DNA from: Acidobacteriota bacterium
GTDB taxonomy: Bacteria; Acidobacteriota; UBA6911; RPQK01; JAJDTT01
Direction of reading: 5' to 3'
DNA length: 64,000 nucleotides
Assembly (NCBI GenBank): GCA_965219855.1
Contig: CBDCOR010000026.1
Span: forward strand, 134,372-198,371
How positions within the stretch are numbered: position 1 is the stretch's first letter; each line of letters opens with the position of its first letter. Below, piece by piece: positions 10,095 through 60,863 of the stretch. The notes under the pieces are model-generated. The model searched no databases and had not been told where the DNA came from. It saw nothing but the letters and a program-made list of their open reading frames with translations. Both the position numbers and the translations under genes were made by a program.

Positions 10095-10625
10095 TTTCGT
10101 TCCAGCAGGTCCAGTCGCTCTCGGCTCTGCTGGTGGGCGATGCTTTGGCAAAATACGAGCCGTTCGGAATTTGGTGCTTGTGATTTGGAGCTTGTTTGTA
10201 TCTTGGGATTCTTAAGTTTCAGGTTTGTGGGACCCCCAGCGGAGCTGGCCCCATTCGAGAAACAGACTTTGGTCGTCTCTAGCGACGAACAGAGATAGCA
10301 GCGTGTCCGTTGTAGGACGGGCATTCCTGCCCGTCGAGGCCAACCGACGGGCAAGAATACCCATCCTACGCCGGGTACCTGCTCGATGAAGTTTCAGGTT
10401 TGTGGGGCCCCCAGTGGAGCTGGCCCGGCGTAGCGGTGGCCTCCAGGCCGCCGTGTATCGGGCCAAAGGCTCGAAGGAAGAAGACTTCGGCCTGGAGCCC
10501 AAAGCTACGTCCGCCCAATCAAGTTTCAGGTTAGCAGCGCCACCGGCTGCGCCGGATCGTACGTCAAAGAAACTCTGATTTGGGGTAGGGGCAATTCTGC
10601 TGTTGTCCGGCTCTCTCCTCGGACC
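10095..10625. repeat. Intergenic cluster of REP/MITE-like elements (AAGTTTCAGG-ended units and a GGCCTCCAGGCC...GGCCTGGAG hairpin unit)
   Basis: Related copies occur at 15245-15360, 39762-40170 and partially at 63369-63440. AAGTTTCAG occurs in this region at 10209, 10395, 10521 and 10761. Confidence 0.8.
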
Positions 10626-10796
10626 TTGGGCTCATATTGCAGACGAGTCAAGTCGTTCGTGGCTCTGTCGGACTTGGTTTCGCAATACTGGCAATCCATT
10701 TCTGTTGGCTGCAACTGGCTCCGCTACTGCTCACTGATCACTGCATCACTGTTCACAATTCAAGTTTCAGGTCAGGAACCCCCCTATAATAGGTGT

Positions 10797-12908
10797 GTGT
10801 CCAAGCAAGAAAGCATCTCATACTCGGGTATCGCTTATGGGAGCGCGCTCTCTTCCTCCGGCGAGTTCAAGCTGGAAAGCCCCTTTCAACCCTCCAAGGA
10901 GCAAGCCAGTGCGATCGATGAGCTGGTGAGAGGGGTGGACGGAGAATCCGGGCAGGTCCTGTTGGGCGTGACCGGCTCTGGAAAGACCTTCACCATGGCG
11001 AAGGTCATCGAGGCGGTGAATCGGCCCACTCTCGTCCTCAGCCACAACAAGACGCTGGCAGCGCAGCTCTACCAGGAGTTCCGGAACTTCTTCAAAGAGA
11101 ATGCAGTGGAGTACTTCGTCAGCTACTACGATTACTACCAGCCGGAGGCCTATATCGCCTCCACCGATACCTACATTGAGAAGGACGCCCTGATCAACGA
11201 CGAGATCGATCGACTCCGCCACTCCGCCACCCGGTCGTTGTTCGAACGCCGCGATTGCATCATCGTCTGCAGCGTGAGCTGTATCTACGGACTGGGATCT
11301 CCGGAAGCGTATTACGGCATGGTTATCATGTTGACCGAGGGGCAGCAGGTTTCACGCCGAGAGCTGCTTCAGCGGTTGGTTGAAATACAGTACGAGCGCA
11401 ACGATTTCGATCTTTCCCGGGGGGTATTCCGGGTCCGGGGTGATGTCATCGAAATCATTCCGTCCTATGAAGACTACGGTATCCGGATCGAGCTTTTCGG
11501 GGACGAGATCGAGGCGATCTACCAGTTCGATCCTCTGACCGGCGAGATCCTCAAGCAGCACGCCCGGATGCCCATTTATCCGCGCTCCCATTACGTCATC
11601 CCTCGCGACCGCTGGAATCGAGCTGTCGACGACATCAAGCAGGAGTTGGGGGAATGTCGAACCCAATTCGAGCAGGAAGGTCGGCTGCTGGAGGCCCAGA
11701 GGATTCATCAGCGAACCATGTTCGACCTCGAGATGATCAAGACCGTGGGCTATTGTCGTGGGATTGAAAACTACTCCAGGCATCTGACGGGTCGTCTCCC
11801 CGGCGAACCCCCTCCCACCCTGATGGATTACCTGCCGCAGGATGCTCTCCTGTTCGTGGACGAGAGCCACGTCACCATTCCACAGGTCCGTGGTATGTAC
11901 GCGGGAGACCGTTCCCGAAAGCTCAACCTGGTCAAGTATGGATTTCGGCTTCCCTCCGCACTGGACAATCGTCCTCTCAGCTTCAACGAATTCGAGGAGC
12001 GTCGTCCCCAGACACTCTACGTCTCGGCCACGCCCGCCAGCTATGAGCTGGAGCAATGCGGTGGGGAGATTGTGGAGCAGATCATTCGGCCAACCGGCCT
12101 GATGGATCCGGAGATCGAAGTCCGTCCGGTCAAGAATCAGATCGACGATCTGCTCGAGGAGATCAGGAAGCGGGCCGCCTGCAAGGAACGGGTCCTGGTC
12201 ACCACCCTCACCAAACGAATGTCCGAGGAGCTGACCGATTACTACACTGAAATCGGAGTGTCGGTTCGCTACCTTCACTCCGAAATAGACACGCTGGAGC
12301 GGATCAAGATCTTGCGGGATCTGAGGCTGGGTCGCTTCGATGTCCTGGTGGGAGTCAATCTGCTGCGGGAGGGCCTGGATCTACCCGAGGTATCACTGGT
12401 CGCGATTCTGGACGCCGACAAGGAAGGTTTCCTGCGCAGCGAAACCTCTTTGATCCAGACCGCTGGACGCGCAGCCCGGAACCTCAACGGAAGGGTGATC
12501 ATGTATGCGGATGTTACCACCCGCTCGATGGCTCGAGCGATCGAGGAGACTACCCGCCGCCGAGAGATCCAGGGTAGGTACAACCAGGCCAACGGAATCA
12601 CACCGGAGTCCATCGTCAAGCCGATCGATGCGACGCTCCTCGAGATGACCAAATTGGACTACTACGACATCTCGGCGGTGGCCGAGGAGATCGAAGAGTA
12701 CAATTCCCCCGAGGAGATCGAGAAGGAGATCGGGCGGATTGAAGTCGAGATGCAAGAGGCTGCAAAGCGATTCGAGTTTGAAAAAGCGGCAGGATTACGG
12801 GACCGCATCAAGCAGCTCAAGGAAACTCGATTGCTGCTCACTGGAAGGGCCGACGGGAGTAAGGCAGTGAGCAGTGAACACACTACTGTCCGGTTAAAAG
12901 TCGAATGA
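10797..12908 (+). CDS. uvrB: Excinuclease ABC subunit B
   Basis: [20 protein letters not shown]...[12 protein letters not shown]...DESHVT...UVR domain at the C-terminus; co-linear with E. coli UvrB. The track ORF starts at 10626 but UvrB homology begins at about 10870. A candidate GTG at 10797 would give MSKQES...; the start is uncertain. The last ~14 codons are encoded by the inserted repeat element. Confidence 0.85.
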
Positions 12909-13344
12909 TATCAAATGGTTAGCGATGTGACCTACTTGGACTTGAAAGTCCCAATGCCTAGTGTACTAAGTGGTTGAAGAATCAGGGTTTGCTCGAATGA
13001 GGTAGTTTTTGAAAATGGCGTCAACTTCTGGGAGTGATGGCGCCCTGAGTGCATAGGAAGGAGGTGAATCCTGAAGGGATTCCGTATTTCAGCCCAGGGT
13101 TTCCGAACCCTGGGTCAACGGCGTCGCCCCTGGATTTCAACCCTGAATGGGTTGCGTATAGAAGGGCAACGAATGGGTCAGGACACAACGCCTACAGGGT
13201 TGATCCTTAAGGGGTTGACTCTCTTACCCAGGGTTGGGAAACCCTGGGCTGGAAGACACAATCCCGTTGGGATTGACCTCGCTTGGTTTTGACAACACCC
13301 ATTTCCCATCCCTCGATCCCAAAGTCGATCCGATCCCACACGAG
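12865..13344 (+). repeat. Copy 1 of a ~500-bp structured repeat element (MITE-like or ncRNA candidate). It begins with CAGTGAG units and a CTGTCCGGTT terminus
   Basis: About 85-90% identical to 49466-49969. It contains paired hairpins CCCAGGGTT-tccg-AACCCTGGG and CCCAGGGTT-ggga-AACCCTGGG. Its right end has diverged and lacks the AACCGGACAG terminus. Confidence 0.8.
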
Positions 13345-13433: not shown

Positions 13434-14753
13434 ATGATACGAATCGAGCCGGTTCGCTCCCTTCGCGGCGAGGTCCAGATACCCGGCGACAAGAGCATCT
13501 CTCACCGCTATGCCATGCTGGGAGCGATGGCCCAGGGTGTCACGCGAATCTCCAATTTTTCGGCGAGCCGTGACTGTCAGGCGACCCTCAACTGCGTGAG
13601 CGGCCTGGGTGTCGAAGTCAAGCAGTCACAAACGACCGTGGAGATCTCCAGCGCCGGCTGGGATAACTTCGTGCAGCCCGATCGGGTGCTGGACGCCGAG
13701 AACAGTGGGACAACGATTCGTCTCCTCTCTTCCTTGTTGGCTTGCCAGGAGTTCACTTCTTCCATACAGGGGGACCAATCGCTCAACCGCCGTCCCATGG
13801 GACGCATCATGAACCCCTTGACTCTGATGGGGGCTGAGATCGAGGCACGGGAGGGGCGATATCCTCCTCTCACTATCCATGGCGGCCGGCTTCAAGGGAT
13901 TCGCTACCCTTTGCCGGTAGCCAGTGCTCAAGTCAAATCCTGTGTTCTCCTGGCCGGGCTCACCGCGCGAGAACGAACCACCGTAGTCGAGCTCACGCCG
14001 TCACGAGACCACACCGAGCGCGCGCTCCCCTTCTTCGGAGCCCACCTCGAGCAGCGCCAGCATGGAGGTGGCGGTCGCTGCGAGATCAGCGTCAGCGGGC
14101 CGGCCGAGCTACAGGCAACCAGCATAGACATTCCTGGCGACTTCTCATCTGCCGTGTACTTTATCTTGGGTGCAGTCCTCGCTCCTGGAAGCGAGGTGGT
14201 GCTCCGGAATGTCGGAGTGAATCCTACTCGCATCGGGTTCCTCAGCCTGTTGGAGGAATCAGGCGCCCAGATCGCGAAATCCAATTGCAGGGAAGCCAAC
14301 GGCGAGCCGGTCTGTGATCTCCGAATTGGGTCGACGGACTCGGTTTGGGAGCGATTTCCCAGGGAGATCGGAGGCAGTTGGATACCCAATCTCATCGATG
14401 AGATTCCGGCCCTCGCCGTTTTGGCGGTCCGTCTGAAACAGGGTCTCATCGTCCGCGATGCACAGGAGCTCAGGAAAAAGGAATCTGACCGGATTCAGGC
14501 TGTGGTCTCCAATCTTCGACAGTTGGGAGTGGATGCCGAGGAACTCCCGGACGGGTTGGTGGTGCCCCCGAAACAGCGTGTTCGGGGAGGTAGGGTAGAG
14601 ACGTTCGGCGACCATAGGATCGCCATGGCGTTTGCGCTGGCCGCCCTGATCGCCGACGCTCCGGTGGAACTGGACCAGCCTGAGTGTGTAGACGTCTCCT
14701 TTCCAGGCTTCTTCGATCGCTTCCGTTCCCTCTGTAGTCAGGCAGCTCAGTGA
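13434..14753 (+). CDS. aroA: 3-phosphoshikimate 1-carboxyvinyltransferase (EPSP synthase)
   Basis: MIRIEPVRSLRGEVQIPGDKSISHRYAMLGAMAQG...; GGAGG RBS 5 nt upstream; overlaps aroK by 4 nt (ATGA). Confidence 0.9.
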   Translation: MIRIEPVRSLRGEVQIPGDKSISHRYAMLGAMAQGVTRISNFSASRDCQATLNCVSGLGVEVKQSQTTVEISSAGWDNFVQPDRVLDAENSGTTIRLLSSLLACQEFTSSIQGDQSLNRRPMGRIMNPLTLMGAEIEAREGRYPPLTIHGGRLQGIRYPLPVASAQVKSCVLLAGLTARERTTVVELTPSRDHTERALPFFGAHLEQRQHGGGGRCEISVSGPAELQATSIDIPGDFSSAVYFILGAVLAPGSEVVLRNVGVNPTRIGFLSLLEESGAQIAKSNCREANGEPVCDLRIGSTDSVWERFPREIGGSWIPNLIDEIPALAVLAVRLKQGLIVRDAQELRKKESDRIQAVVSNLRQLGVDAEELPDGLVVPPKQRVRGGRVETFGDHRIAMAFALAALIADAPVELDQPECVDVSFPGFFDRFRSLCSQAAQ

Positions 14754-15244
14754 CCCAACACATCTACCTGGTAGGCTTCATGGGAAGCGGTAAATCGACT
14801 GTCGGGCAGGCCCTTGCCCGGGAGCTGGGACGAGTCTGTCTCGATCTCGACGAACTGATCGAGGAGCGCGAAGGAATGGCCATTCCAGAGATCTTCGATC
14901 GTCACGGGGAGCCTCGCTTCCGAGAAATCGAAACCCAGCTGCTACTGGAGATCCTTGATTTGCCGCCGGCTGTAGTTGCCGTGGGCGGAGGGGCCTTCAT
15001 CCAGGAGTACAACCGAGATCTGATCCTGGACAGAGGTCTCGCCGTCTGGCTCAACGTTCCTGTCGACTTGGCTTGGAAGCGCTCCTCTCAGGTGGACAAT
15101 CGTCCCCTGGCGCAAAACCGGGAATCCTTCGAGGCACTTTTCTCCAAGCGACAAGGGATCTATAGGATGTCTCACCTCACCGTCGACATCGAAGAAAAAT
15201 CGCCAGAGGCGATCTGCGAGGAAATTGTTGGGCAGCTAAACTGA
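14750..15244 (+). CDS. aroK: Shikimate kinase
   Basis: IYLVGFMGSGKSTVGQALAREL is a P-loop with shikimate-kinase length and context. Confidence 0.85.
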   Translation: MTQHIYLVGFMGSGKSTVGQALARELGRVCLDLDELIEEREGMAIPEIFDRHGEPRFREIETQLLLEILDLPPAVVAVGGGAFIQEYNRDLILDRGLAVWLNVPVDLAWKRSSQVDNRPLAQNRESFEALFSKRQGIYRMSHLTVDIEEKSPEAICEEIVGQLN

Positions 15245-15458
15245 AACTTCATTGGCGAATGTAGCTTTGGCCTCCAGGCCGAAGTCTTATTCTTCCGAGC
15301 CTTCTGCTCGGACGACGGCCTGGAGGCCACCGCTACGTCCCTCGATTGAAGTTTCTTTCCTGTACGCTTGAGCAGTGAGCAGTTCCGAAAACAGGCGCGG
15401 TTCAACAGCACCGTCTTAGGGGTGAGCCGTCAGTAATTTGAACAGCTCTAAGTTTGGG
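15245..15458. repeat. REP-like palindromic element (GAAACTTCA...GGCCTCCAGGCC...GGCCTGGAGGCC...TGAAGTTTC) plus a short CAGTGAG run
   Basis: Reverse-complement copy of the units at 10404-10530 and 39762-39860, lying between convergent aroK and clpB. Confidence 0.8.
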
Positions 15459-21801: not shown

Positions 21802-21984
21802 GGTCTGCGCAAGAATAACTTGGCATTTTGGCATCCCGGCTTCACACCATCTTCGGCCGCTCCTCGATCGCGAAATCCTCAACGTAGACCTGGCTACGCC
21901 TGCGGTTTCGCTCGATCGTTCGCGGCCAAATCTGATGCAAATCCGAGCGCCAATTCTACCAAGTTATTCTTGCGCAGACCCTTA
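21799..21984. repeat. 186-bp MITE-like element with 25-bp near-perfect terminal inverted repeats (AAGGGTCTGCGCAAGAATAACTTGG)
   Basis: The terminal repeats were read directly. It is immediately followed by the palindrome GTACACTGGAATTCCAGTGCAC (21986-22008), a relative of the palindrome at 53716-53757. Confidence 0.7.
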
Positions 21985-24459: not shown

Positions 24460-25211
24460 AAGAGCAGATATTGGCGGGCGATGGACAGGACCTCAGGCAT
24501 CTGAAGAGATCATGAAAACGACCTTCGACATCTTCAAAAACTATTCGTACCTGCTTCAGATGCAGAGGTAGTTGCTGTGAATGCTGCCCTATCCCATGCC
24601 AATGTTGCTTTCGAAAAGGTAGGGACTGCCCAGGGTTCCCCGTGCAACGCCCTGGTCCGAGGCAGGTCTGTCGGGGGCCACTTCAAAAGCGGCCAGGCGG
24701 GGCCGGGTCAAAAGCGGCCAGTGATTCAGTAGTTATATCCTCCGGTTCGAGTCATTTCAATCCCTTGTGAAGCCCTCCCCGCGAAGCGGGGGGAGGAGGC
24801 TTTGTTGTGTGTTCAGCCGTAGAAGCGGTGGGAACTGTGGGAAACTCCGTCCGGAGGAGTTTTCCAAGCGCTGTGGGAACGGTGGAAAAACTCGCCTCCT
24901 GGAGTCGTCTTCGCGAGGCAGCCGTTTTCCCACGGTTTCCATAGCGCGGCAGTTTCCACGGCTTTCCGGGGGTGTTGGGGGAAACTCGAGAAGCCTGGCT
25001 TCCATGGTCTCTGCTTGGTTTCAACGACACGGCTTCTTCCTGGCTTCCTTTTTTCAAAAAACATTCGCTCAGAGGCCCCTCAAGCAATGAGCTCTGCCCC
25101 ACCCTGTCCTGACCCCTCCCTCGGAGCGGGCAATCTACGAAGCCTGGGGCTGAGTCCCAGGGTCTGCGAGTAGGGGACAAGCCCGCACTCACAGCACTCG
25201 CCTCGCAGGTG

Positions 25212-25985
25212 TCATTTCTCTTTCCCTCGCTTCGGGGTGGATTTCTCTCGTTGCTGTCGCTCGTAGAGGCGATAGCTCTTGCCCCGAATGAAGGTGACTT
25301 CCGAAGTGTGCAGGAAGCGGTCCAGCAGCGCCGAGGTGGCCGCCGTATCTCCTCCCAGCATCGCGCCCCAGTCCTCCAGGGGTCGATTCGAACTGAGGAT
25401 CGTCGAGGTCTTCTGGTATCGGCGGTGCAGGATCTCCAACAGATCTTCTGCCGCCGACTCCGGCACTCTGCGGAGTCCCAGATCCTCGAGGATCAGCAGC
25501 GGGATCCGGGTCATCTCCGTAATGTAAGATCGGCGTCTGCCGGTGGCCGTGGCTTCGGCGATGTCTTCCAGCAGATCGAAAGCCGACTTGTACTGCACCC
25601 GGTGACCGGCTTCGACCGCCTTGATCCCGACGGTGATGATCAGATGGCTCTTGCCGACTCCGGTCTGACCGATGACCAACCAGCCGCGGCGCTGTTGGAT
25701 GAATCGGCCGGTAGCCAGATCGAAGATCTGCTGCCGGTTGATGGAGGGGTTAAAGGAGAAGTTAAAGTCCTCCAAGTGCTTTTGTTCCGGAAACTGGGCC
25801 TGGCGCAAACGTCGCTCCAACAGCCGGTCCCGACGGCGGGTCAGCTCGTCATCAATCAGCAGCTCAAAGAACTCCTGATGGCTGAGCCTTCCCTGGACGG
25901 CTTGTTGCAGGCGAACGTCAAAGACCTGAGCCAGGCCCGAGAGCCGGAGGTGACGAAGTTTTCGTTCCAGTTCTGATGAGATCAT
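25212..25985 (-). CDS. istB: IS21-family helper ATPase IstB
   Basis: IGQTGVGKSHL Walker A, 257 aa; overlaps istA by 4 nt. Confidence 0.85.
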   Translation of the reverse strand: MISSELERKLRHLRLSGLAQVFDVRLQQAVQGRLSHQEFFELLIDDELTRRRDRLLERRLRQAQFPEQKHLEDFNFSFNPSINRQQIFDLATGRFIQQRRGWLVIGQTGVGKSHLIITVGIKAVEAGHRVQYKSAFDLLEDIAEATATGRRRSYITEMTRIPLLILEDLGLRRVPESAAEDLLEILHRRYQKTSTILSSNRPLEDWGAMLGGDTAATSALLDRFLHTSEVTFIRGKSYRLYERQQREKSTPKRGKEK

Positions 25986-27478
25986 TCTGGTTCTCCTGTG
26001 GGATCGGTGATCTGGTACTCGGACAGCGGTCGGATCAACTCGTGCTCGGAGGTAAACAAAGAGCGCTGCGGCACGTCCAGTCGCTTACACAAAGCCACCA
26101 GAGTCCGGTAGCGGAAGGCGTCATGTGCGAGCGCCTTGCCGCAGGCTTCGTCGACGACCGAAGCGCGGTAGCGGCGGGTCAGCGAGATCATGCCCTGCAC
26201 GAGTCGGTAGGCGAGCATGTCTCGGACCTCCAGAGCTCGCTCGGCCCAGCGGTGCGCCTCTGGACCCACGGCTCGGGCTTGCTTCAGCAGATGATGCTCG
26301 GTTCGATAGTGCGCGTAGCGTTTGCGTTCCGGAAGATGGCTCGTTTCGGTTCGGAATCTCCCCGGCGGGTGCTTCGGATGCAGGGCCACCTGTTGCTCAC
26401 GAAAGAAGACGCGGACGATACGATCATCCCAGTGCACGGCGACTTCACAACCGAGCAGATGATTGGGCACCGAGTAGAACGCTCGGTCGACTTCGATGTG
26501 GCCATCGGTGGAGACCGTTCGACGGCCCACGCGGAAGAAACTGAAGCGGGAATCCGGAAGCGGTCGGAGATGCTTCTGTTCTTCGACAAAGCGGGGCCAG
26601 ACCTGCTGCTTGGTGGTGCCGTGGATGCGCTGGCGGGCGATTCGCTCGTTCCAACTCTGCAGATGCTCATTCTGCGCATCCAGGCTCTCGAAGCGGCGAG
26701 CTTTGAGCGCGCTGGAGTCGGTATATCCGATGCTTCTTTCGACTTTTCCGTTCTCGTTCGGAGCGCCCGGATGGATGGGCAGCACGGCGAAGCCGTAGTG
26801 GCGAGCGAGCGCACTGAAGACGGCATTGACCTCGGGGTCCACCAAGCAAGCCCGGGTGATCCCGGCCTTGAGGTTATCGAGGCGAACCACCTCCACGCCG
26901 CCTCCAAAAGCGTGAAAAGCCTCCTCGACACAGCGGATGAACGTCTTCAGTTCCTGCCGCCAGACGACTTCCTCATAGGAGTGGCGCGAGTGGCAGAGGA
27001 CGGCCTTGAACAGATGAGGACGGCGGTAACGACCCGATTCGGTCCGAGTCAGGGCTCCTTTGCCGAAGTCGATCTGCAGGTCCCGACCGGGGGGAGTTTC
27101 CACCCGAGCAAACACGCGAGGACTCTCCGCCTTGAGCTTTCCACAGAAGCGCTTGACGGAGTTGTAGGCTCCCCCGAATCCCTGCTCGAAGACCAGGTCC
27201 TGCCAGATCCGCTTGGCCTGCAATCCCTGCTGGAGTTTCTTTTCAATCTGCTCCCGAAAGGGCTCACAGAAGCTGCGCAGACCCGGGGGCCGCTTTGGCC
27301 GCTTTTGCTCCTCCGAGCCGGGGGCCGCTTTGGCCGGTTTTGAATCTCGGGAGGGATCATAGCGGGCAATCCTCTCTCGTCGGACTCCCACCTCTCGCTC
27401 GATCCGACGATACGACCAGCCCAGCTTCAGGAGCGCCAAAACCGTTTGCTTCTTTTCCATTTTCAATGTATTGGCCAT
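25982..27478 (-). CDS. istA: IS21-family transposase IstA (intact, 498 aa)
   Basis: N-terminal HTH (TVLALLKLGWSYRRIEREVGV) plus a DDE integrase core. The copy-B version is the same protein with an internal deletion. Confidence 0.85.
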   Translation of the reverse strand: MANTLKMEKKQTVLALLKLGWSYRRIEREVGVRRERIARYDPSRDSKPAKAAPGSEEQKRPKRPPGLRSFCEPFREQIEKKLQQGLQAKRIWQDLVFEQGFGGAYNSVKRFCGKLKAESPRVFARVETPPGRDLQIDFGKGALTRTESGRYRRPHLFKAVLCHSRHSYEEVVWRQELKTFIRCVEEAFHAFGGGVEVVRLDNLKAGITRACLVDPEVNAVFSALARHYGFAVLPIHPGAPNENGKVERSIGYTDSSALKARRFESLDAQNEHLQSWNERIARQRIHGTTKQQVWPRFVEEQKHLRPLPDSRFSFFRVGRRTVSTDGHIEVDRAFYSVPNHLLGCEVAVHWDDRIVRVFFREQQVALHPKHPPGRFRTETSHLPERKRYAHYRTEHHLLKQARAVGPEAHRWAERALEVRDMLAYRLVQGMISLTRRYRASVVDEACGKALAHDAFRYRTLVALCKRLDVPQRSLFTSEHELIRPLSEYQITDPTGEPE

Positions 27479-27574
27479 CGGCGCATCCTACGCCGGATGC
27501 GGCCCTCAATGGCTCTTGAAAATGGCCGGTTTTGAAGTGGCCCTCACTGGCCGCTTTTGGGTGGCCCCTGACAG

Positions 27575-39621: not shown

Positions 39622-40357
39622 GGCTGTAAAAAGCAGCTTCGCATTACAGCATTTCATCTTCAAACCATCTTCGGCCGCTCTTCCAGGGTTCGCAGCGCTG
39701 TTGACTGCAGCTGTTTCCGGTACTCCTCACTGCTCACTGGATCACTCAGGGGAAAACTTTGGGTCCGGCGTAGCGGTGGGCTCCAGGCCGCCGTCCGAGC
39801 CAAAGGCTCGGAAAAATAAGACTTCGGCCTGGAGGCCAAATCTACATTCGCCAATGAAGTTTCAGCTTGGTGGCCCCCCAGCGGTGCTGTCCCATTCGAG
39901 AACGAAACTTTGGTTGTCTTTAGCCCGCATTTCTCATCGCTGGTCTACTGCGACGCCGCAATCATCCGCCCTGGCTGTGTTATGCTCGGTCGGCCTCCTC
40001 GACGTACTGTGCAAGTACGACTGCGGCGGCCTCGGTCGCAAGCCTTGCCAGGACGGCCCTTGCGGCGCCTCGCTACGACAAGCGATGAGAAATCCGGGTT
40101 AGCCACGAACATCGATAGCAGCATGCCCATCCTACGCCGGTCACTGCTCGATGAAGTTTCAGCTCAGACGAAAGGAAGAAATTGGGTCTAGCTCTGTTTC
40201 AACTTCGAGAGTATAATCTTGTCCCAAGGTCGGGAGGGTAGGAAGCCCGGTCTTTACTCTCGACTCATCCTAGTATCGGTCGGCCAGAGGGATCTGATAG
40301 TCTTAGGCGTACCAGGTTTTCCAACTGTCGAGTTTCGGTGCTGCCGCGGGGGACCAC
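39622..40357. repeat. Dense intergenic array of REP/MITE-like repeats (CTCACTG run, GGCCTCCAGGCC hairpin unit, AAGTTTCAG-ended ~300-bp unit)
   Basis: 39762-39860 matches 10404-10530 and 15245-15360. 39846-40170 matches 10222-10400. Confidence 0.8.
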
Positions 40358-43963: not shown

Positions 43964-44719
43964 TCAATCCACAGGAGTCTCTTGGGTTGAGAACACATCA
44001 TCTCGTCTCTCCTTTCCTGAGTGAGTTGCTGAGGCAAAGCTTGCTTCAGCAGAGTGTTGTTTCCATTGTTGCCTCAGAGTCTTCAGGCGACTCCTGAGAT
44101 AATCCCAGTATTGATCGGAGACAGGTTGTTGTCTCACTTCCTGGATTAGAGGTTCGAAGTAGCTCAGGGAAGTGATCGGTCCACCGGTGTGGCCGTTGAG
44201 CCAGGCGACGTGCTTGCGGGCGCAGCCGAGAAGCAGGGTCTGCTCGATCTGCCGCAAGGACAGGCCCTGGCGGTAGAGGCGAGCGGCCAGCTGCCGATCG
44301 GCCGGGGAGAAGGAGCACTGAACGCCAGGGGCATCGAGCAGCAGACAGGCCACCTGATCGAGGTATTGGGATTCGGCCGCTTCGGGCTCCTGGACGAGGG
44401 ATCTTTGGTAGGGCCAGAAGGCCTAGCTGATCTGGATGTGAGTGCGCTCGTGTTGATTGCGAGCGAGGCTGAGCTGAACTAGACCTCGGGACTGGAGTTC
44501 TCCCAGGTAGGTGAACAGGGAGCGGCGAGATTTGCGCAAGGCCGGAGCCAACTGGGTAGGCGAGACGGTCAGTTCGCCGGTGCAGCGATCCGCTTTCAGG
44601 CACAGATAGACAAAGAGTTTGAAGGCGCCGTCGCTGACGCTCTCCATCGCCTGTAGCAACGGAGCACCGGCGGCGGCGAACCAGCCACCTTGGACTTTCA
44701 ACTGCGGTGTTGGACTCAT
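43964..44719 (-). pseudogene. Passenger ORF inside the second IS21 element: winged-helix-like protein interrupted by one in-frame TAG (98 aa + stop + 22 codons + 129 aa)
   Basis: ORFs 44423-44719 and 43964-44353 are in the same phase, separated by a single TAG at 44420-44422. The N-terminal part FKLFVYLCLKADRCTGELTVSPTQLAPALRKSRRSLFTYLGELQSRGLV looks like a winged-helix DNA-binding domain. Confidence 0.45.
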
Positions 44720-45471
44720 GATTCGTCCTTTGCTTTGGTGGGAGGATGACGATGCCGGCGCATGGAAGCCCCTTCGAGCTCAATGCGGTAGGCATTATGG
44801 ACCAGACGATCCAGGATGGAATCAGCGGTGGTCGGATCTCCGATCTGCTCATGCCAATGGGCGACGGGAAGCTGGGAGGTCAGGATCGTGGATCGACTGT
44901 CGTAGCGATCCTCGCAGATCTCGTAGAAGTCCCGTCGCTCGCTCTCGGCCAAGGGATTCATGGCCCAGTCATCGACGATCAGCACGTCGGTGCGGGCGAT
45001 CTTACGCAGGAGCTTGTCGAGCGAGCCGTCGGCTCGAGCCAAAGCCAGATCGCGAAAGAGTCGAGCGGCACGAGTGTACAGAGCCGTCCACCCGTCGCGA
45101 GCGGCCTTCTGAGCAAAGGCACAGGCCAAGAAGGTTTTCCCGACTCCACAGGGACCGATGATCAGGAGATTGTGGTGGGTCTGGATCCAACGGCAGGTGG
45201 CGAGGCTGGCAATCAGCGAGCGATCCAGCCCCCGAGGTCGGCGATAGTTGACATCTTCCAGACAGGCCGAGAGCTTCAATCGGGCATTCTTCAGACGACG
45301 CTCCAAGGCCCGATTCTCTCGCCAGGTCCACTGCCGATCCACCAACAGGGCAAAGCGTTCTTCAAAGCTCAGTTGGGCCATCTCCGGGTCGGAGAGTTGC
45401 TCGGTGAAGGCCTCAGCCATGGCCCTGAGCCGCATGGCGTGAAGTTTTTCGACGGTGGGATTAACCAACAT
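44716..45471 (-). CDS. istB: IS21-family IstB helper ATPase (second element)
   Basis: IIGPCGVGKTFLACAFA is a Walker A motif; 251 aa. Confidence 0.8.
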   Translation of the reverse strand: MLVNPTVEKLHAMRLRAMAEAFTEQLSDPEMAQLSFEERFALLVDRQWTWRENRALERRLKNARLKLSACLEDVNYRRPRGLDRSLIASLATCRWIQTHHNLLIIGPCGVGKTFLACAFAQKAARDGWTALYTRAARLFRDLALARADGSLDKLLRKIARTDVLIVDDWAMNPLAESERRDFYEICEDRYDSRSTILTSQLPVAHWHEQIGDPTTADSILDRLVHNAYRIELEGASMRRHRHPPTKAKDES

Positions 45472-47032
45472 GAGAGGCTCCTTTCTCGCCTTCGAAGTAC
45501 TCGGCCCCTCGCACGTTGGCGTGCTCGATCGGAGGACGTTCCGGCAACGGTTGCGGTTCCGCTTGACGGTCCAGACCGTTCTTCAACATGGACTGGATAC
45601 TCTTGTAGGAGCAGGCCTGAAGTCGCAGGGCCCGACGGCAAGCCTGCTCCAAACGGTCTTCCCCAAAGCTGGAGCCCAGGCGCAGGATACCCAAGCAGGA
45701 GCGATAGCTTTGCTCGGGATAGCGACGGGATTGGAGGATCTTCTCGACCACCGATGCGGTATGGGGCCCGACTTTCTGAGCCCAGTGGATCAGACGCGAG
45801 GGTGACCACTCCAGATAGCGGCGATGGCATTCGGGCCGGTGCTCGTCCAAGGTCGTGGCCTTGCCCGGCTGATAGGAGCGACGGTGAGAGGTCACGCGGC
45901 GACCTTGATGGAAGATCTCCACGGTGGTGACGGTGGTGCGCAGCTCGACCTTCTGACCCACCAGGACATAAGGGACGCTGTAGTAGTGGCGGTCGAACTC
46001 GATGTGGTAATCGATGTTGACGCGGGCCTTCTTCCACTGGGCGAAGACGTAGCGTTGGGCCGGCAGGGGCCCCAGAGCCGGACGATCCAGGTCCTGGAAG
46101 CGCTGGCGGCGGTTGCCGGGGAGCTTGTGAAAGTTTCGAGTGTTGAGACGCTCCAGCAGCTCGGCAATGGCTTCGTTGAGCTCTCCCAGGGAAAAGAAGG
46201 TCCGGTGACGCAAGGCGGCCAAGATCCAGCGCTCGACGACTAACACACCCGACTCCGCCTTCGCTTTATCTCGAGGACGGCGCACTCGAGCCGGGATCAC
46301 CGCGACGCCGTAGTGCGAGGCCCAATCCGAATAGCTCGCATTGAGATCCGGTTCATAGCGACAGGGGCGATGGACCGCATCTTTGGTGTTGTCTGGAACC
46401 ACGACGCAGGGGCAACCCCCCAGGAACTCCAGAGCCCGAGTGTGGGCCGCGAGCCACGAGGGTAAGTCCTGCCTTAGGGAGGCTTCCGCATAGGTATAGT
46501 TGCTTGCCCCCAGCCCGGCCACGAAGATCGAGGCCTCTTGGGTTTCCCCCGTATGGCGATCCACGATCGGGACCGTGTCGCCGGCATAGTCCACGAAGAG
46601 CTTCTCGCCGGCCCGGTGTTCCTGCCGCAGCACCAGATCCAGCTTGCCCCGCCAGCGATGGTACAGATCGCAGAACTGACTGTACTGATAGCCCTCCGGA
46701 TACGCCTGCTTGTACTCATCCCAGAGCAGCATCAAGGTCACATGTTTGTGTCGGCAGCGCTCCTCATGGACGGTGGCGAAGTCGGGGAGGGGACGTTGCT
46801 CCGGGGGAGATTTACCCGTGGGAGGAAACACCCGGTTCTGAATCGCCCGGTCATCCCACCCCTCAGGGAGTGGCCAACTCAGACCGGCTCCTTGGGCCCG
46901 GCGCACATACTCTGCCACGGTGCTGCGCGCGAGGGCACAGCTACGGGCGATCTGCCGATCCGAAAGATGAAGCTGAAACTTCAGGCGTAGGACATTTTTG
47001 ATTTTGCGCATGGACTTCCTTTGGTTCGGCAC
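45461..47032 (-). CDS. istA: IS21-family IstA transposase (second element, 523 aa)
   Basis: N-terminal HTH plus a DDE core; only distantly related to the 498-aa IstA of copies A/B. Confidence 0.8.
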   Translation of the reverse strand: MPNQRKSMRKIKNVLRLKFQLHLSDRQIARSCALARSTVAEYVRRAQGAGLSWPLPEGWDDRAIQNRVFPPTGKSPPEQRPLPDFATVHEERCRHKHVTLMLLWDEYKQAYPEGYQYSQFCDLYHRWRGKLDLVLRQEHRAGEKLFVDYAGDTVPIVDRHTGETQEASIFVAGLGASNYTYAEASLRQDLPSWLAAHTRALEFLGGCPCVVVPDNTKDAVHRPCRYEPDLNASYSDWASHYGVAVIPARVRRPRDKAKAESGVLVVERWILAALRHRTFFSLGELNEAIAELLERLNTRNFHKLPGNRRQRFQDLDRPALGPLPAQRYVFAQWKKARVNIDYHIEFDRHYYSVPYVLVGQKVELRTTVTTVEIFHQGRRVTSHRRSYQPGKATTLDEHRPECHRRYLEWSPSRLIHWAQKVGPHTASVVEKILQSRRYPEQSYRSCLGILRLGSSFGEDRLEQACRRALRLQACSYKSIQSMLKNGLDRQAEPQPLPERPPIEHANVRGAEYFEGEKGASHVG

Positions 47033-47533
47033 GATCGCTCCTCCGAAAAGGAGTCATGGTACCGAAGGAGTCCAACGTCGCTTCCGTCCGCTCTGGAAAC
47101 CGATTCCGGGAAACCGGCCGCCTTTCCGGGAAACCGGCCACCCTTCCGGGAAATCGGCCACCCTTCCGGAAACCCCGTTTCTAGTGGCCGGTTTCCCGCC
47201 GGATTGGGTGGCCGGTTTGCTCCGGAATCAGTGGCCGGTTTGCTCCGGAATCAGTGGCCGGTTTGCTCTGGAATCACCGGCCGGTTTCGTCCGGAATACG
47301 CAAACAAAGTGGAAGGAATCCGAAATCCTGGCTCCAGTCGATCTCTGCTGTTTCGTTTTCCTCTCTCGCGAGGGGTTAAGGCGTCAGGTGAGCCGCCGGC
47401 CCGTGGTACCATTGAAGCAGGTCGGCGGCCGGAGATCTTCCAATGTGAGGACCTAGGAAGAGCGGTCTGCCCGGCTTCCCTTTTGGAATTGGTTGAAGAA
47501 GAATACCCTAGTAGCGATCGCGGTTTCTGACAG

Positions 47534-48076: not shown

Positions 48077-48330
48077 GTAATCGTCTGAACGTCTGAACGT
48101 CGCACGTTGCTGAGGAAGGCCTTTATTGATGTGAACTGCAATATTGCAAGGCCCTGTCCGGCAGAGTCGCGAACGACTTGACTTGTCAGCAAGATCAGCC
48201 CAAGTTTCGAGGAGAGAGCCGGACAACAGCAGAACCTCCCTCCTATGCCCGAGGAAAGTTTCTTTCTCGAATGGGGCCAGTGCTCCTTGACTAGGAGCCG
48301 CGAATCTTACCGAGCCGCGCGAATTCCATT

Positions 48331-49467
48331 GTGAGCGCTTCTATCAGAGATCTGACCCATCAGATCAAGGCAAAGGCCAGCGAACTGGGATTTGACGCAG
48401 TGGGTGTTGCGCCAGCGACGGTGATTCCCGAGGATCGTCTCCGGACCTGGCTGAAGAGCGGTTACCACGGCAAGATGGACTACATGACCCGTCAGGCCGA
48501 GAAGCGCTTGAATCCGGATAAAGTGCTGCCTGGAGTCCGATCGGTCCTTTGCGTCTTGCTCGACTACTACCATCCCTACGAGCTTCCCTATGACCAGCCC
48601 CACCTTGGCGTCGTCTCACGTTACGCGTCTGGAGAGGAATACCACCAGCTCATCCAGGAAAGACTGCGACAACTGTTGTTCGGCATCCGCTCTCTTCTGC
48701 CCCAGGTACAAGCCAAGCTCTACGTGGACACGGGGCCGGTCATGGATAAATACTGGGCCGCTCAGGCAGGTCTGGGTTGGCTGGGCAAACACACCAATCT
48801 GCTGGACCGGGATCGTGGCTCCTGGTTCTTCCTGGGTGAGATTCTGTTGGATGTCGAGTTGGAATACGACCAGCCCAGTTTCGATTTCTGTGGCACCTGC
48901 ACCCGCTGCATCGATGCCTGTCCCACCGACGCCATCGTCGATCCCTATGTGCTGGACGCCCGGCGCTGTATCTCTTATCTAACGATCGAGCTGCGCGACG
49001 ATATCCCGAACGAGCTCCGGGAGCCGATGAGCAACCTGGTTTTCGGCTGCGATATCTGTCAGGACGTTTGTCCCTGGAACCGGTCTGCTCCCGATTCCTC
49101 GGTTGCAGAATTCAAACCGCGTGAGCTAAATCGACAGCCAGAATTGAAGCGACTCGCCCAGATCACGCCAGAGCAGTTTCCCAAGAGATTTAGGAATAGC
49201 CCCATCAAACGGGCCAAGTGGAGAGGCTTGATGCGCAACGTCGCCGTCGCGATGGGCAATAGTAGAGATCCCAACCTGGTTCCGGAACTCAGCAAGCTTC
49301 TCGATTCGGAGGAGGCCATGGTTCGACGTCACGCCGCCTGGGCGCTGGCGCAAATCGCGACCTCGGAGGCGCTCGAGAGCATTCAAAGGCGCCTGGACCA
49401 GGAAGAAGACCGATCGACACGCGAGACTCTCGAGAGTCTGTTGGCCCCAGTCGCGCCCGGCCAGTGA
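48331..49467 (+). CDS. queG: tRNA epoxyqueuosine(34) reductase
   Basis: CGTCTRCIDACPTDAI and CDICQDVCPWN are the 4Fe-4S motifs; C-terminal HEAT-like repeats; 378 aa. Confidence 0.85.
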   Translation: MSASIRDLTHQIKAKASELGFDAVGVAPATVIPEDRLRTWLKSGYHGKMDYMTRQAEKRLNPDKVLPGVRSVLCVLLDYYHPYELPYDQPHLGVVSRYASGEEYHQLIQERLRQLLFGIRSLLPQVQAKLYVDTGPVMDKYWAAQAGLGWLGKHTNLLDRDRGSWFFLGEILLDVELEYDQPSFDFCGTCTRCIDACPTDAIVDPYVLDARRCISYLTIELRDDIPNELREPMSNLVFGCDICQDVCPWNRSAPDSSVAEFKPRELNRQPELKRLAQITPEQFPKRFRNSPIKRAKWRGLMRNVAVAMGNSRDPNLVPELSKLLDSEEAMVRRHAAWALAQIATSEALESIQRRLDQEEDRSTRETLESLLAPVAPGQ

Positions 49468-50110
49468 GCGGTGAGTAGTGAGCAGTGAGCAGTGAGTAGT
49501 GATCACTGCTGTCCGGTTAAAAGTCGAATGATATCAGGTGGTTAGCGATGCGACCTACTGGCCTTGCACGTCCCAATTCCTAAGTGGTTGAAGAATCAGG
49601 AGTTGCTAGAACGGGGTAATGCTGAAAATTGGCGTTAGCTTCTGGAGTGTTGGCGCCCTGAGCGCACGAGAACGAGGTGAATCCTGAAGGGATTCCGTAT
49701 TGCAGCCCAGGGTTTCCGAACCCTGGGTCAACGTCGTCTCCCCTTGGATTTCAACCCTGAATGGGTTGCGTACAGAAGGGCAGCGAGTGGGTCGGGGCGC
49801 AACCCTTACAGGGTTGATTAACAAGGGGTTAAATCTCTTACCCAGGGTTCGGAAACCCTGGGCTGGAATACGCAATCCCGTTGGGATTGACCTGGCTTGG
49901 TCGGACGGGACCCATTTCCCATCGTTTCCAACGCCAGGGTCGAACCGAACCCACACGAGTCGGGTAGGGGCGGCAGTCCGAGTTGAAGTCGATTCCAGTG
50001 TGCTATCCTTGTAACTAATTGATTAGACTTATGTTATCAAGATATCTGAATAGTTCAACCGGACAGTAGTGAGTAGTGATCAGTGGTCAGTGATTAGCAG
50101 TGAGCAGTTC
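49466..50110 (+). repeat. Copy 2 of the ~560-bp structured element, complete, with 10-bp terminal inverted repeats CTGTCCGGTT/AACCGGACAG and heptamer tracts on both sides
   Basis: It starts exactly at the queG stop codon. Element core 49503-50063; heptamers at 49466-49502 and 50061-50110. Internal CCCAGGGTT/AACCCTGGG hairpin pairs as in copy 1. Confidence 0.8.
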
Positions 50111-50197: not shown

Positions 50198-50686
50198 CTA
50201 GTTCACGCGCTGGTTCGCAGCCTTGGCTTTTGCCGCTTTGGCCTGGGCAAACTTCTGCTTGAGTTCTTCGAGCTTTTCCTTATTTTCTTCCAGCGTCTTT
50301 TGGTTGATGACCTGGCCGATGAATTCTACGTGCAGAGTCCACGCCTGCTCGATCTGCAGGGTCTCAGGGTTGCGAAACCAGCACTCTTCCCAGAGGCGCT
50401 TGTTGTTGAGGTTGAGGGTGACCAGCTGCCCCGGTTGATACTCTTTCCGAGTTGGGAGTACATCCACCTCCATTAGCTCGTCGTCGGGGTCCAGGCCCTC
50501 AAGAATCACAATACGCGCGTCGGTCACCTCTTTCTCGCAAGCGGGATCGTCGTAGAAGGGAAGATCCATGTGGAGGACTCGGTAGGGGATAAAGGGTAGC
50601 TCATCGGTTTCTTCAGGCTTGGGATCAAAGCTTTCAGTGAGCGGTGCTGCCGACTTGCTCTTGAATAACTTTTTCAACTTCCCCAT
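50198..50686 (-). CDS. Hypothetical protein with a Lys/Ala-rich C-terminus
   Basis: 162 aa, no recognised domain. Its TAG stop is embedded in a degenerate CTCACTG tract (50175-50205). Confidence 0.45.
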   Translation of the reverse strand: MGKLKKLFKSKSAAPLTESFDPKPEETDELPFIPYRVLHMDLPFYDDPACEKEVTDARIVILEGLDPDDELMEVDVLPTRKEYQPGQLVTLNLNNKRLWEECWFRNPETLQIEQAWTLHVEFIGQVINQKTLEENKEKLEELKQKFAQAKAAKAKAANQRVN

Positions 50687-51038
50687 CGGAGTAACTCCTT
50701 TCGTCGTCCCTTTGGCGTGACTGGCAAGCGTGCTGCCGAAAGAAGAATCATACCAGGTAGAAGTGCTGCCTGTAACCGTATCTCCAAGCTGGTGGAAAAG
50801 GCAGATCTGCCCTCGAAATCGAGTCGCTTTCAGTGCCGAAAAAAGAGGTACTACAATCCTGTCGGATGAGGCAAGTTTCCTGCGGCTCTTCGGCTTGACC
50901 TGGGTCGGGAAAAAATGCTAGAAAGTAGCGTTTCCAAGCTAAGTGTCAGGGGCCACCCAAAAGCGGCCAGTGAGGGCCACTTCAAAACCGGCCATTTTCA
51001 AGAGCCATTGAGGGCCGCATCCGGCGTAGGATGCGCCG

Positions 51039-52428
51039 ATGGCCAATACATTGAAAATGGAAAAGAAGCAAACGGTTTTGGCGCTCCTGAAGCTGGGCTG
51101 GTCGTATCGTCGGATCGAGCGAGAGGTGGGAGTCCGACGAGAGACGATTGCCCGCTATGATCCCTCCCGAGATTCAAAACCGGCCAAAGTGGCCCCCGGC
51201 TCGGAGGAGCAAAAGCGGCCAAAGCGGCCCCCGGGTCTGCGCAGCTTCTGTGAGCCCTTTCGGGAGCAGATTGAAAAGAAACTCCAGCAGGGATTGCAGG
51301 CCAAGCGGATCTGGCAGGACCTGGTCTTCGAGCAGGGATTCGGGGGAGCCTACAACTCCGTCAAGCGCTTCTGTGGAAAGCTCAAGGCGGAGAGTCCTCG
51401 CGTGTTTGCTCGGGTGGAAACTCCCCCCGGTCGGGACCTGCAGATCGACTTCGGCAAAGGAGCCCTGACTCGGACCGAATCGGGTCGTTACCGCCGTCCT
51501 CATCTGAGGCGGCGTGGAGGTGGTTCGCCTCGATAACCTCAAGGCCGGGATCACCCGGGCTTGCTTGGTGGACCCCGAGGTCAATGCCGTCTTCAGTGCG
51601 CTCGCTCGCCACTACGGCTTCGCCGTGCTGCCCATCCATCCGGGCGCTCCGAACGAGAACGGAAAAGTCGAAAGAAGCATCGGATATACCGACTCCAGCG
51701 CGCTCAAAGCTCGCCGCTTCGAGAGCCTGGATGCGCAGAATGAGCATCTGCAGAGTTGGAACGAGCGAATCGCCCGCCAGCGCATCCACGGCACCACCAA
51801 GCAGCAGGTCTGGCCCCGCTTTGTCGAAGAACAGAAGCATCTCCGACCGCTTCCGGATTCCCGCTTCAGTTTCTTCCGCGTGGGCCGTCGAACGGTCTCC
51901 ACCGATGGCCACATCGAAGTCGACCGAGCGTTCTACTCGGTGCCCAATCATCTGCTCGGTTGTGAAGTCGCCGTGCACTGGGATGATCGTATCGTCCGCG
52001 TCTTCTTTCGTGAGCAACAGGTGGCCCTGCATCCGAAGCACCCGCCGGGGAGATTCCGAACCGAAACGAGCCATCTTCCGGAACGCAAACGCTACGCGCA
52101 CTATCGAACCGAGCATCATCTGCTGAAGCAAGCCCGAGCCGTGGGTCCAGAGGCGCACCGCTGGGCCGAGCGAGCTCTGGAGGTCCGAGACATGCTCGCC
52201 TACCGACTCGTGCAGGGCATGATCTCGCTGACCCGCCGCTACCGCGCTTCGGTCGTCGACGAAGCCTGCGGCAAGGCGCTCGCACATGACGCCTTCCGCT
52301 ACCGGACTCTGGTGGCTTTGTGTAAGCGACTGGACGTGCCGCAGCGCTCTTTGTTTACCTCCGAGCACGAGTTGATCCGACCGCTGTCCGAGTACCAGAT
52401 CACCGATCCCACAGGAGAACCAGAATGA
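51039..52428 (+). pseudogene. istA: istA with ~109-bp internal deletion and frameshift (two ORFs 51039-51536 and 51514-52428)
   Basis: Compared to copy A, the segment FKAVLCHSRHSYEEVVWRQELKTFIRCVEEAFHAFGGG is missing and the frame changes after ...RRPHL. Confidence 0.85.
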
Positions 52429-53198: not shown

Positions 53199-53816
53199 CA
53201 CCTGCGAGGCGAGTGCTGTGAGTGCGGGCTTGTCCCCTACTCGCAGACCCTGGGACTCAGCCCCAGGCTTCGTAGATTGCCCGCTCCGAGGGAGGGGTCA
53301 GGACAGGGTGGGGCAGAGCTCATTGCTTGAGGGGCCTCTGAGCGAATGTTTTTTGAAAAAAGGAAGCCAGGAAGAAGCCGTGTCGTTGAAACCAAGCAGA
53401 GACCATGGAAGCCAGGCTTCTCGAGTTTCCCCCAACACCCCCGGAAAGCCGTGGAAACTGCCGCGCTATGGAAACCGTGGGAAAACGGCTGCCTCGCGAA
53501 GACGACTCCAGGAGGCGAGTTTTTCCACCGTTCCCACGGCGCTTGGAAAACTCCTCCGGACGGAGTTTCCCACAGTTCCCACCGCTTCTACGGCTGAACA
53601 CACAACAAAGCCTCCTCCCCCCGCTTCGCGGGGAGGGCTTCACAAGGGATTGAAATGACTCGAACCGGAGGATATAACTACTGAATCACTGGCCGCTTTT
53701 GAAGTGGCCCCCGACACTAAGTACACTGGAACGTATTTACGTTCCAGTGTACTAAGGAGAAATAGAGGTAAGGGTCTCGAAGCATCAAGCTCAGGATAGA
53801 ACTCGAGGATAGTGGA

Positions 53817-60828: not shown

Positions 60829-60863
60829 TTCATTGCTCACTGCTCACTGCTCACTGCTCACTG
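60829..60863. repeat. CTCACTG x5 tandem heptamers abutting the stop codon of the 60858-61826 gene (CAGTGAG on its sense strand)
   Basis: Read directly from the sequence. Confidence 0.85.

Follow-up and report, generated by a model that had tools for sequence, protein, structure and literature searches.

This work concerns a repeat that occurs twice in a window of 64,000 nucleotides from an Acidobacteriota bacterium (assembly GCA_965219855.1, contig CBDCOR010000026.1). The first copy lies at the 3' end of uvrB, ahead of aroA, and the second lies 3' of queG, where it is faced by a convergent open reading frame (ORF; Table 1). Reading and aligning the two sequences establishes that the pair is real and that both members are non-coding. 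The repeats are very probably decayed copies of a MITE (miniature inverted-repeat transposable element) of the IS4 family (IS4Sa-like). Each would carry, nested within it, a doublet of Acido-Lenti-1-like units resembling a REPIN, the hairpin-forming doublet of repetitive extragenic palindromes (REPs).

The first-pass annotation of this DNA had proposed two copies of one structured repeat, and the alignment bears this out: the copies are 86% identical over 509 aligned nucleotides (blastn E=4e-141), with a mean column identity of 83%. The insertions and deletions between them measure 1, 2, 7 and 8 nucleotides; as none of these is a multiple of three, the element is non-coding. The 22-mer at the left end is found twice in the window against an expectation of 0. 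The hairpin pattern CCCAGGGTT-N4-AACCCTGGG is found four times, always within the two copies, against an expectation of 0.03. Given their 86% mutual identity, both copies are old. At the right end of copy 1, similarity to copy 2 fades near 13405, and about 30 bp that would include the right inverted repeat are gone, as had been recognised in the first annotation. The loss of this end has immobilised copy 1.

Element ends and target-site duplications

To set the limits of the element, 10 left and 7 right ends, taken from the window and other genomes, were compared. In the window, in four Acidobacteriota metagenome-assembled genomes (MAGs) and in metagenome contigs, homology starts exactly at CACTACTGTCCGGTTAA and stops exactly at TTAACCGGACAGTAGTG, and the flanking sequences are unrelated. 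This gives terminal inverted repeats of 17 bp, rather than the 10 bp first assigned to them. The same cross-genome comparison shifts the boundaries of the two copies from 12865-13344 and 49466-50063 to 12881-~13405 and 49504-50071. Both 17-bp repeats are present in copy 2 and in the copies at loci L019 and L026, and single ends are present in at least 15 further copies.

Target duplications can be read directly from the flanks. Copy 2 stands between two copies of the same 9-bp sequence, a perfect 9/9 match (Table 1). The copy at L019 has an 8/9 duplication (ATTATCACT / GTTATCACT), as does a copy divided between L089 and L024 (ACCTATCTT / ACCTATCTC). At L026 no target duplication was found, and the left end of that copy is degenerate. 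The L089 (1-217) and L024 (718-1080) sequences are two contigs of one MAG that both end inside one MITE copy and whose outer flanks share the duplication; contig breaks of this kind show that the repeat fragments short-read assemblies.

An IS4-family partner

A metagenome scan with a degenerate form of the left end returned 22 loci, and at five of them two inverted repeats lie 1.31-1.33 kb apart. Elements of 1,311-1,332 bp with the same inverted repeats as the MITE are found at L115, L129, L127 and L122; at L110, a 1,329-bp copy has degenerate inverted repeats and a disrupted ORF. The insertion sequence (IS) of 1,328 bp is common to L115 and L129, with relatives at L127 and L122. At L115 (561-1888), its inverted repeats are perfect and ATATATATT stands on each side as a 9/9 duplication.

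The L115 element encodes a protein of 389 amino acids that matches the Pfam families DDE_Tnp_1 (114 bits) and DUF4372 (117 bits) and scores 272.7 bits on the NCBIfam model for the IS4 family (NF033592, cut-off 115). This transposase is ~57% identical to those of ISGme2 and ISPosp4, and its tblastn matches are annotated as IS4-like. Its ORF ends, stop codon included, inside one inverted repeat. The IS4Sa subgroup is characterised by a length of 1150-1750 bp, ends of the form CA------T and direct repeats of 8-10 bp (PMC2266710, De Palmenaer et al., Table 1). The values for the parental IS (1,311-1,332 bp, ends CACTACTGT, a 9-bp duplication) all lie within these ranges, and it would fit IS4Sa by size, ends and duplication length.

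The likeness between MITE and IS extends inward from the inverted repeats. Over 130 nt, the left module of copy 2 matches L115, L129 and L111 at ~70% identity (blastn), and the left ~140 nt of the element compared with the IS end give a shuffle z of about 6-9, matched in 0 of 500 shuffles. On the minus strand, the left module preserves a remnant of the last transposase codons, reading ..NHLISFDF* where the IS reads ..NQLILFDF*. At the right end, the last ~90 nt of the MITE also resemble the other IS end, though more weakly (shuffle z about 5 against L115 and L129). The right module recurs in six copies of the MAG Langseth_Bin_00184. The palindrome that occupies the middle of the MITE is absent from every IS copy found. 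Shared ends and subterminal homology make the element an internally deleted derivative of an IS4-family element, and hence a MITE. Taken in sum, the inverted repeats, the 9-bp target duplications, a non-coding length below 600 bp, the multiple copies and a partner IS with the same ends are what such an element should have. Together with the unrelated flanks of its copies, they support the non-autonomous, MITE-like element suggested at first pass.

Two other candidates for the autonomous partner were rejected: the 2.8-kb perfect inverted repeats of the window, which belong to the IS21 family (IstA/IstB) and have unrelated ends; and a 1.9-kb insert at L087, which is an IS110-family element inside the core of a MITE copy.

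Copies in other genomes

A scan with the hairpin pattern, using one genome per species, returned at least 108 stretches. As the loci were chosen by the exact sequence of one hairpin, hairpin B, the copy numbers derived from them are lower bounds. Among the matches listed, most belong to Acidobacteriota MAGs (Langseth_Bin_00184, CBDCLS, CBDCMS, CBDCUP and UBA6911), and others come from Planctomycetaceae, Pirellulaceae, Verrucomicrobia and Lentisphaerae MAGs. The Planctomycetaceae matches mostly share only the 22-nt hairpin and were not counted as copies of the element.

A full-length copy of 570 bp at L019 is 83.5% identical to copy 2 (blastn), and many partial copies are found in other loci. 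The Langseth_Bin_00184 MAG contains at least 8 copies of the same composite with 90-97% mutual identity, which indicates that the composite was amplified as a unit. The CBDCLS, CBDCMS and UBA6911 MAGs, as well as metagenome contigs, contain further MITE copies, in each case between unrelated flanks. Identity between copy 2 and the Langseth copies is 84-87%, comparable to that between copy 2 and copy 1; copy 1 appears nearest to L087 and L046 in the alignment of copies.

This distribution bears on whether the repeat is mobile at all. A simple segmental duplication within the genome would produce two copies with a common orientation, each after a gene, as in the window, and the first annotation had allowed for the case in which only two copies exist. 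Many copies with unrelated flanks were found in several genomes instead, dozens of related copies in all, and homology ends exactly at the inverted repeats. The window copies are as distant from each other as from those of other genomes, which excludes a local duplication. With the multi-genome distribution and the target duplications also refuting it, the probability that remains for a segmental duplication is negligible.

The palindromic core

Between the two modules of copy 2 lies a 220-nt imperfect palindrome (49675-49893), whose arms are 79% complementary and separated by a 27-nt spacer. Each arm contains a unit with three hairpins, and corresponding arms are found in copy 1 (Table 1). 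The two hairpins first annotated in each copy are both present, as parts of this larger palindrome. For the core of copy 2, the folding z is -9.3 (plus strand) and -9.7 (minus strand); as the core is a palindrome, both strands fold far better than shuffled sequences.

One 96-nt arm gives at least 129 blastn matches in the pattern-selected loci and the window. These are mostly convergent inverted pairs (~30 loci); some are solitary, and some cover only the first 54 nt. Many have no MITE frame and are flanked by other repeats, as in loci of CBDCUP, CBDCMS and UBA6911. In the window, all four units are inside the MITE. An alignment of 49 distinct units supports the three hairpins, with 97.9% of cells paired. 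In six pairs both partners have changed, among them CG/GC at columns 7-23, UA/CG at 10-20 and UA/AU/GC/UG at 89-93, and the observed pairing and covariation are matched by none of 500 shuffles. Compensatory changes, by which the first-pass annotation had proposed to judge the structure, are thus present among the aligned units.

In an alternative reading, the core alone is mobile, as a REPIN moved by an enzyme of the Y1 type (REP-associated tyrosine transposase, RAYT). The IS4-type ends would then be dead relics, and the 568-bp composite would never have transposed whole. The core and single units that occur without a MITE frame in CBDCUP, CBDCMS and UBA6911 are consistent with this, as are the many copies without one IS4-type end. 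It does not accommodate the eight or more loci of one MAG that share a left or right module, the core and the junctions at 90-97% identity between unrelated flanks, nor target duplications that lie outside the IS4-type inverted repeats. Composite copies with outer duplications require mobilisation from the outer ends. Mobility of the core alone is accordingly most improbable, and a MITE that moved with its core inside is preferred.

Relation to Acido-Lenti-1

At the Rfam gathering thresholds, the whole window contains only a tRNA. Matches to snoRNA, long non-coding RNA and microRNA families at permissive thresholds were dismissed as noise. The Rfam scan foreseen in the first annotation yields a resemblance and no family at threshold in either copy: the minus strands of the unit(+) arms match RF01687 (Acido-Lenti-1) with 31.2 bits in copy 2 and 33.1 bits in copy 1 (E ~1e-5), where the gathering score is 37. 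No unit in 18 further loci reaches the gathering score, and a Verrucomicrobiia locus has matches of 28.4 and 30.6 bits, likewise below 37. Acido-Lenti-1 was described from 89 representatives as probably, though not certainly, an RNA, and one with no cis action; in Lentisphaerae it is sometimes found near group II introns, and many representatives come from a single Lentisphaerae assembly (PMC2864571, Weinberg et al. 2010).

The resemblance to RF01687 includes an 8-9-bp hairpin, a 12-nt linker starting from CU(A/G), a 5-7-bp hairpin with a 3-nt loop and a trailing U. It also includes hosts in the Acidobacteria and the Planctomycetes-Verrucomicrobia-Chlamydiae (PVC) group and several copies per genome. 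The differences are that scores remain at 28-33 bits against a gathering score of 37, that only one arm of each palindrome is reported, and that the motif is not a stand-alone small RNA (sRNA) gene: it makes up the first half of a longer 96-nt unit in mobile repeated DNA.

These data also address the other possibility raised at first pass, that of a structured non-coding RNA gene, an sRNA of the Acido-Lenti-1 type or something larger, co-transcribed from the upstream gene, with the copies as paralogous RNA genes. The left-arm minus strands do match RF01687 with E ~1e-5, the hairpins have compensatory changes and G-U pairs, the predicted folds are much more stable than those of shuffles, and each window copy follows a plus-strand gene. 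All RF01687 scores, in the window and in 26 loci, nevertheless fall below the gathering score, and the palindrome folds equally well on both strands. Outside the window, the genes on either side may be tandem, convergent or divergent, the copies occur in either orientation, and neither window copy contains a sigma-70-like promoter or a U-tract terminator. The inverted repeats, the duplications and a partner that encodes a transposase account for the multiplicity of the element without any RNA function. With its orientations varying and no Rfam family at threshold, an RNA gene family is not supported and must be considered very unlikely; a mobile DNA element remains the preferred reading.

Y1 transposase genes and IS110 insertions

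Probe sequences for IS200 and RAYT proteins were used as bait only, and every match was retested with Pfam and NCBIfam. Two Y1_Tnp genes lie between inverted units. The first, in an Acidobacteriota MAG (L109), encodes 151 amino acids (5030-5485), with a unit(+) upstream and a unit(-) downstream and a total repeat-gene span of 4917-5605. The second, in a Pirellulaceae MAG (L063), encodes 150 amino acids (272-724) and has the same arrangement (span 160-830). Their Pfam Y1_Tnp scores are 82 and 89 bits. When the gene is taken out of L109, its flanks align over the whole MITE core at 81%, including sequence that lies outside the units. Inverted repeats around a transposase gene are the arrangement of RAYT genes and their REPIN derivatives (PMC3116915, PMC3337134), and the core of the MITE would have originated by loss of the Y1 gene. 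At L063, a tandem array of units follows the Y1 gene (830-1260).

The units are also interrupted by insertions. A 1,207-bp IS110-family element is present in five copies in CBDCMS (L048 2570-3776, L054, L108, L095 and L044; 99-100% identical), and it is inserted at one fixed position of hairpin B, giving AAACCCT / IS / CTGGGCTG with CT duplicated. This was seen at both junctions of L048, L054 and L108 and at the left junction alone of L044 and L095. At L087 (3534-5414), a different IS110-family element, with a transposase of 403 amino acids (NF033542, 149.8 bits), lies in hairpin C, in the right arm of a MITE copy, making this locus three layers of nested mobile DNA. REPs are known targets of IS110 elements (PMC1525189), which pick their sites via a bridge RNA (PMC11208160).

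Taken together, the occurrence of units on their own in the pattern-selected loci, compensatory changes, IS110 targeting and the flanking of Y1 genes identify the core as a REPIN-like element nested in the MITE. That hairpin B is common across phyla suggests horizontal spread. A wider proposal can be put forward tentatively, with the balance tilted somewhat against it. The three-hairpin units, and Acido-Lenti-1 itself, may be REP/REPIN-type repeats of a Y1 (RAYT-like) lineage common to Acidobacteriota and the Planctomycetes-Verrucomicrobia-Lentisphaerae. Their spread would be due both to a Y1 enzyme of their own and to carriage within an IS4-derived MITE, and they would serve as landing pads for RNA-guided IS110 elements rather than as RNA genes.

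The 3' end of uvrB

The left end of copy 1 is likely to have landed in a dispensable 3' tail of uvrB. The ORF encodes 760 residues, and the UVR motif ends at residue 733. UvrB homologues (at most 75% identical, all Acidobacteria-like) have short variable tails after this motif, and none has the sequence TTVRLKVE. The first annotation had attributed the last ~14 codons and the stop of uvrB to the element; the element does supply the stop, with eight codons rather than 14 (Table 1), and in front of them two heptamer-like repeats of the flank encode the residues AVSSE(H). The effect of this tail on UvrB function is probably nil. The left end of the MITE has stop codons in two of its three frames. 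No comparable empty uvrB-aroA site was found at the DNA level, because the nearest UvrB homologues reach only 75% identity and come from short contigs; an exact-protein look-up of AroA matched only the source contig.

A similar arrangement is seen at L114 (4217-5017), where an ORF extends 27 nt into a MITE left end (at 4990) and then stops, as uvrB does. The repeat beside that end has counterparts in the window (21819-21865 and 39637-39683). At the other end of uvrB (10626-10850), the listed start is ~75 codons upstream of the helicase domains, in a segment that includes the heptamer tract 10726-10756, and the real start codon is probably further downstream.

The location of both window copies directly 3' of genes raises the possibility of host exaptation as a 3'-end element, of the kind suggested for REP/BIME elements. 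It might stabilise transcripts, separate convergent genes or terminate transcription, and a MITE origin would accommodate any of these roles. The core is able to fold into a long hairpin whose free energy is very low, and roles of REPs in mRNA stabilisation and termination are hypothesised (PMC3733652). Against this, neither copy has a U-tract terminator, positions and orientations elsewhere are inconsistent, and the copies are decaying, as their truncations and 14% divergence indicate. Exaptation would thus seem unlikely, if clearly less so than an RNA gene. A REP-like influence on transcript 3' ends is possible, and any effect of the element on host transcripts is one that we infer.

Heptamer tracts and other repeats of the window

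Both window copies abut heptamer sequence, and such tracts cover well under 1% of the window. There are eight (CAGTGAG)n tracts in the window; they are also found in UBA6911-type contigs (L076/L118 and L119) and not in the other loci. Heptamers are absent from the flanks of MITE copies in other genomes. The tracts, at first regarded as the setting of the element, are therefore flanking target DNA and a feature of the lineage. Since both copies abut tracts, and the element's terminal CAGTAGTG is similar to the tract sequence, a preference of the MITE for (CAGTGAG)n as an insertion target is possible.

Further mobile DNA is present in the window. Two IS21-family copies (24699-27573 and 50944-53711) lie in inverted orientation and are 100% identical except for a 106-nt segment (26905-27010), which is missing from the second copy and whose absence breaks its istA. 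Perfect identity alongside such an indel could be an assembly artefact. A third, different IS21-like element (44716-47032) encodes an IstA on the minus strand (45461-47032; rve and Mu-transpos_C_2), with a probable IstB ORF just downstream, and is adjoined by tandem repeats of 20 and 23 nt that contain GGCCGGTTT (47104-47297). Another intergenic family, with GGCCTGGAGGCC-type palindromes and AAGTTTCAGGTTTG motifs, occurs at 10214-10560, 10595-10690, 15230-15337, 39762-39924 and 48139-48280, upstream of uvrB and queG and downstream of a shikimate-kinase gene; it is unrelated to the MITE.

Table 1. Features of the two repeat copies and their surroundings. Coordinates are those of the window unless a locus is named; a point marks a feature given without a strand.
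Feature	Coordinates	Strand	Remarks
uvrB ORF	10626-12908	+	UvrB domains; copy 1 at its 3' end
Copy 1	12881..~13405	.	MITE, right end truncated; only left inverted repeat present
Copy 1 left inverted repeat	12881-12897		sole inverted repeat found in copy 1
Element-encoded uvrB end	12882..12908	+	eight codons TTVRLKVE and TGA stop (12906-12908)
Copy 1 unit(+)	13062..13156	+	arm match
Copy 1 unit(-)	13186..13279	-	arm match
aroA	13434-14753		next gene after copy 1
IstB	25212-25985	-	first IS21-family copy
IstA	25982-27478	-	first IS21-family copy
queG	48331-49467	+	precedes copy 2
(CAGTGAG)n target tract of copy 2	49462..49503	+	resumes 50067-50110
Copy 2 left target duplication	49495..49503	+	AGTAGTGAT, 9 bp, read directly
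Copy 2	49504..50071	.	complete 568-bp MITE; minus strand in sense of parental transposase gene
Copy 2 left terminal inverted repeat	49504..49520	+	CACTGCTGTCCGGTTAA; equals right inverted repeat (IRR) of parental IS, overlapping transposase stop codon
Copy 2 left module	49521..49643	.	homologous to IRR end of IS4-family element
Copy 2 unit(+)	49675..49770	+	96 nt; hairpins GAATCC..GGATTC, CCCAGGGTT-TCCG-AACCCTGGG, CAACCCTG..GGGTTG
Copy 2 unit(-)	49798..49893	-	inverted second unit
Copy 2 right module	49894..50054	.	last ~90 nt weakly homologous to left inverted repeat (IRL) end of IS
Copy 2 right terminal inverted repeat	50055..50071	-	TCAACCGGACAGTAGTG; IRL side of parental IS
Copy 2 right target duplication	50072..50080	+	AGTAGTGAT, perfect 9/9 match to left
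Convergent ORF	50198-50686	-	faces copy 2
Heptamer tracts and variants	6893-7098, 60830-60863, 49462-49503, 50067-50110, 10726-10756, 15369-15383		intergenic, up to 27 units
Heptamer tracts in UBA6911-type Acidobacteria	L076/L118 3319-3346; L119 3509-3543

A probable nested non-autonomous element

The mobility of the composite likely proceeds as follows. The MITE has kept the 17-bp inverted repeats and the subterminal sequence needed for recognition by the IS transposase. Where a full-length IS shares its cell, that IS would supply the DDE transposase in trans, so that the MITE could move by cut-and-paste, each insertion being expected to duplicate 9 bp of target. We infer this trans-mobilisation by the IS4 transposase from the shared ends. 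The 220-nt palindrome takes the place of the transposase gene, its units constituting a separate REP/REPIN-like family, and one non-autonomous element would thereby be nested inside another.

Several observations weigh against this interpretation. The first group concerns the IS4-type frame. Neither a full-length IS4Sa partner nor a Y1 gene is found within the 64-kb window, and no recognisable target duplication is present at two of the full IS copies, L122 and L110. The right ~90 nt of the element match the IRL end weakly, with a z of about 5 only against L115 and L129. The duplication at copy 2 sits in a tandem heptamer tract, where a chance 9-bp repeat is easier; removal of copy 2 and one AGTAGTGAT duplicate restores the heptamer register, which argues for a real duplication.

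The second group concerns the core. Hairpin B had its sequence fixed by the scan and is uninformative on covariation, which is therefore demonstrated outside hairpin B only. The Y1 proteins score 56.8-71.3 bits on the IS200 model (cut-off 55), a narrow-to-moderate pass. On the NCBIfam model REP_Tyr_transpos (cut-off 80), the scores are 25.4 for L109 and 19.7 for L063, and L006 has no match. Given this failure, the term RAYT describes a likeness in gene context and not a demonstrated membership.

With this interpretation, transposon debris accounts for both of the structured blocks between genes and for the unusual UvrB tail. The exact ends, the duplications and the parental IS allow further copies to be masked or used as markers. 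A three-layer nesting also emerges, in which a REPIN-like doublet lies in an IS4-derived MITE and is interrupted, in related genomes, by site-specific IS110 elements. The result also hints that what Rfam curates as an sRNA family could be a DNA repeat of the REP type. It is useful and not surprising, as all the mechanisms involved are already known, and the element is selfish DNA of a known type.

Comparison with known systems

The core shares several properties with REPs and REPINs: two inverted palindromic units with a short spacer that form a long hairpin; units that, in the pattern-selected loci, occur singly or as doublets in intergenic DNA; a Y1 gene between inverted units; and targeting by IS110. 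In contrast to classical REPs of 20-40 nt, its units are ~96 nt long with three hairpins, and those of the window are found only inside the MITE. Inspection by eye revealed no GTAG or CGTC tag. Of the two models, the Y1 proteins pass that for IS200 alone, and those that match the curated RAYT model stay below its cut-off.

The outer element resembles bacterial MITEs derived from IS elements of the DDE type (IS4, IS4Sa; ISGme2, ISPosp4) in being non-coding, shorter than 600 bp and multi-copy, with inverted repeats identical to those of the IS. It shares with IS4Sa a 9-bp duplication within the 8-10 bp range and ends of the form CA------T, and its subterminal sequence is homologous to both IS ends. 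No name for this IS or MITE was found in the resources searched. It departs from a typical IS-derived MITE in that its internal segment is a foreign palindromic repeat and not IS sequence, and in that its host is an uncultured member of the Acidobacteriota.

The BOX elements of pneumococcus and the Correia elements of Neisseria are composite small repeats that lie within or beside genes and alter gene ends. Like them, the present element is an intergenic mosaic of hairpin-rich modules that can supply stop codons or extend reading frames. It differs from them in its unrelated sequence, in the family of its parental transposase and in its 9-bp target duplication.

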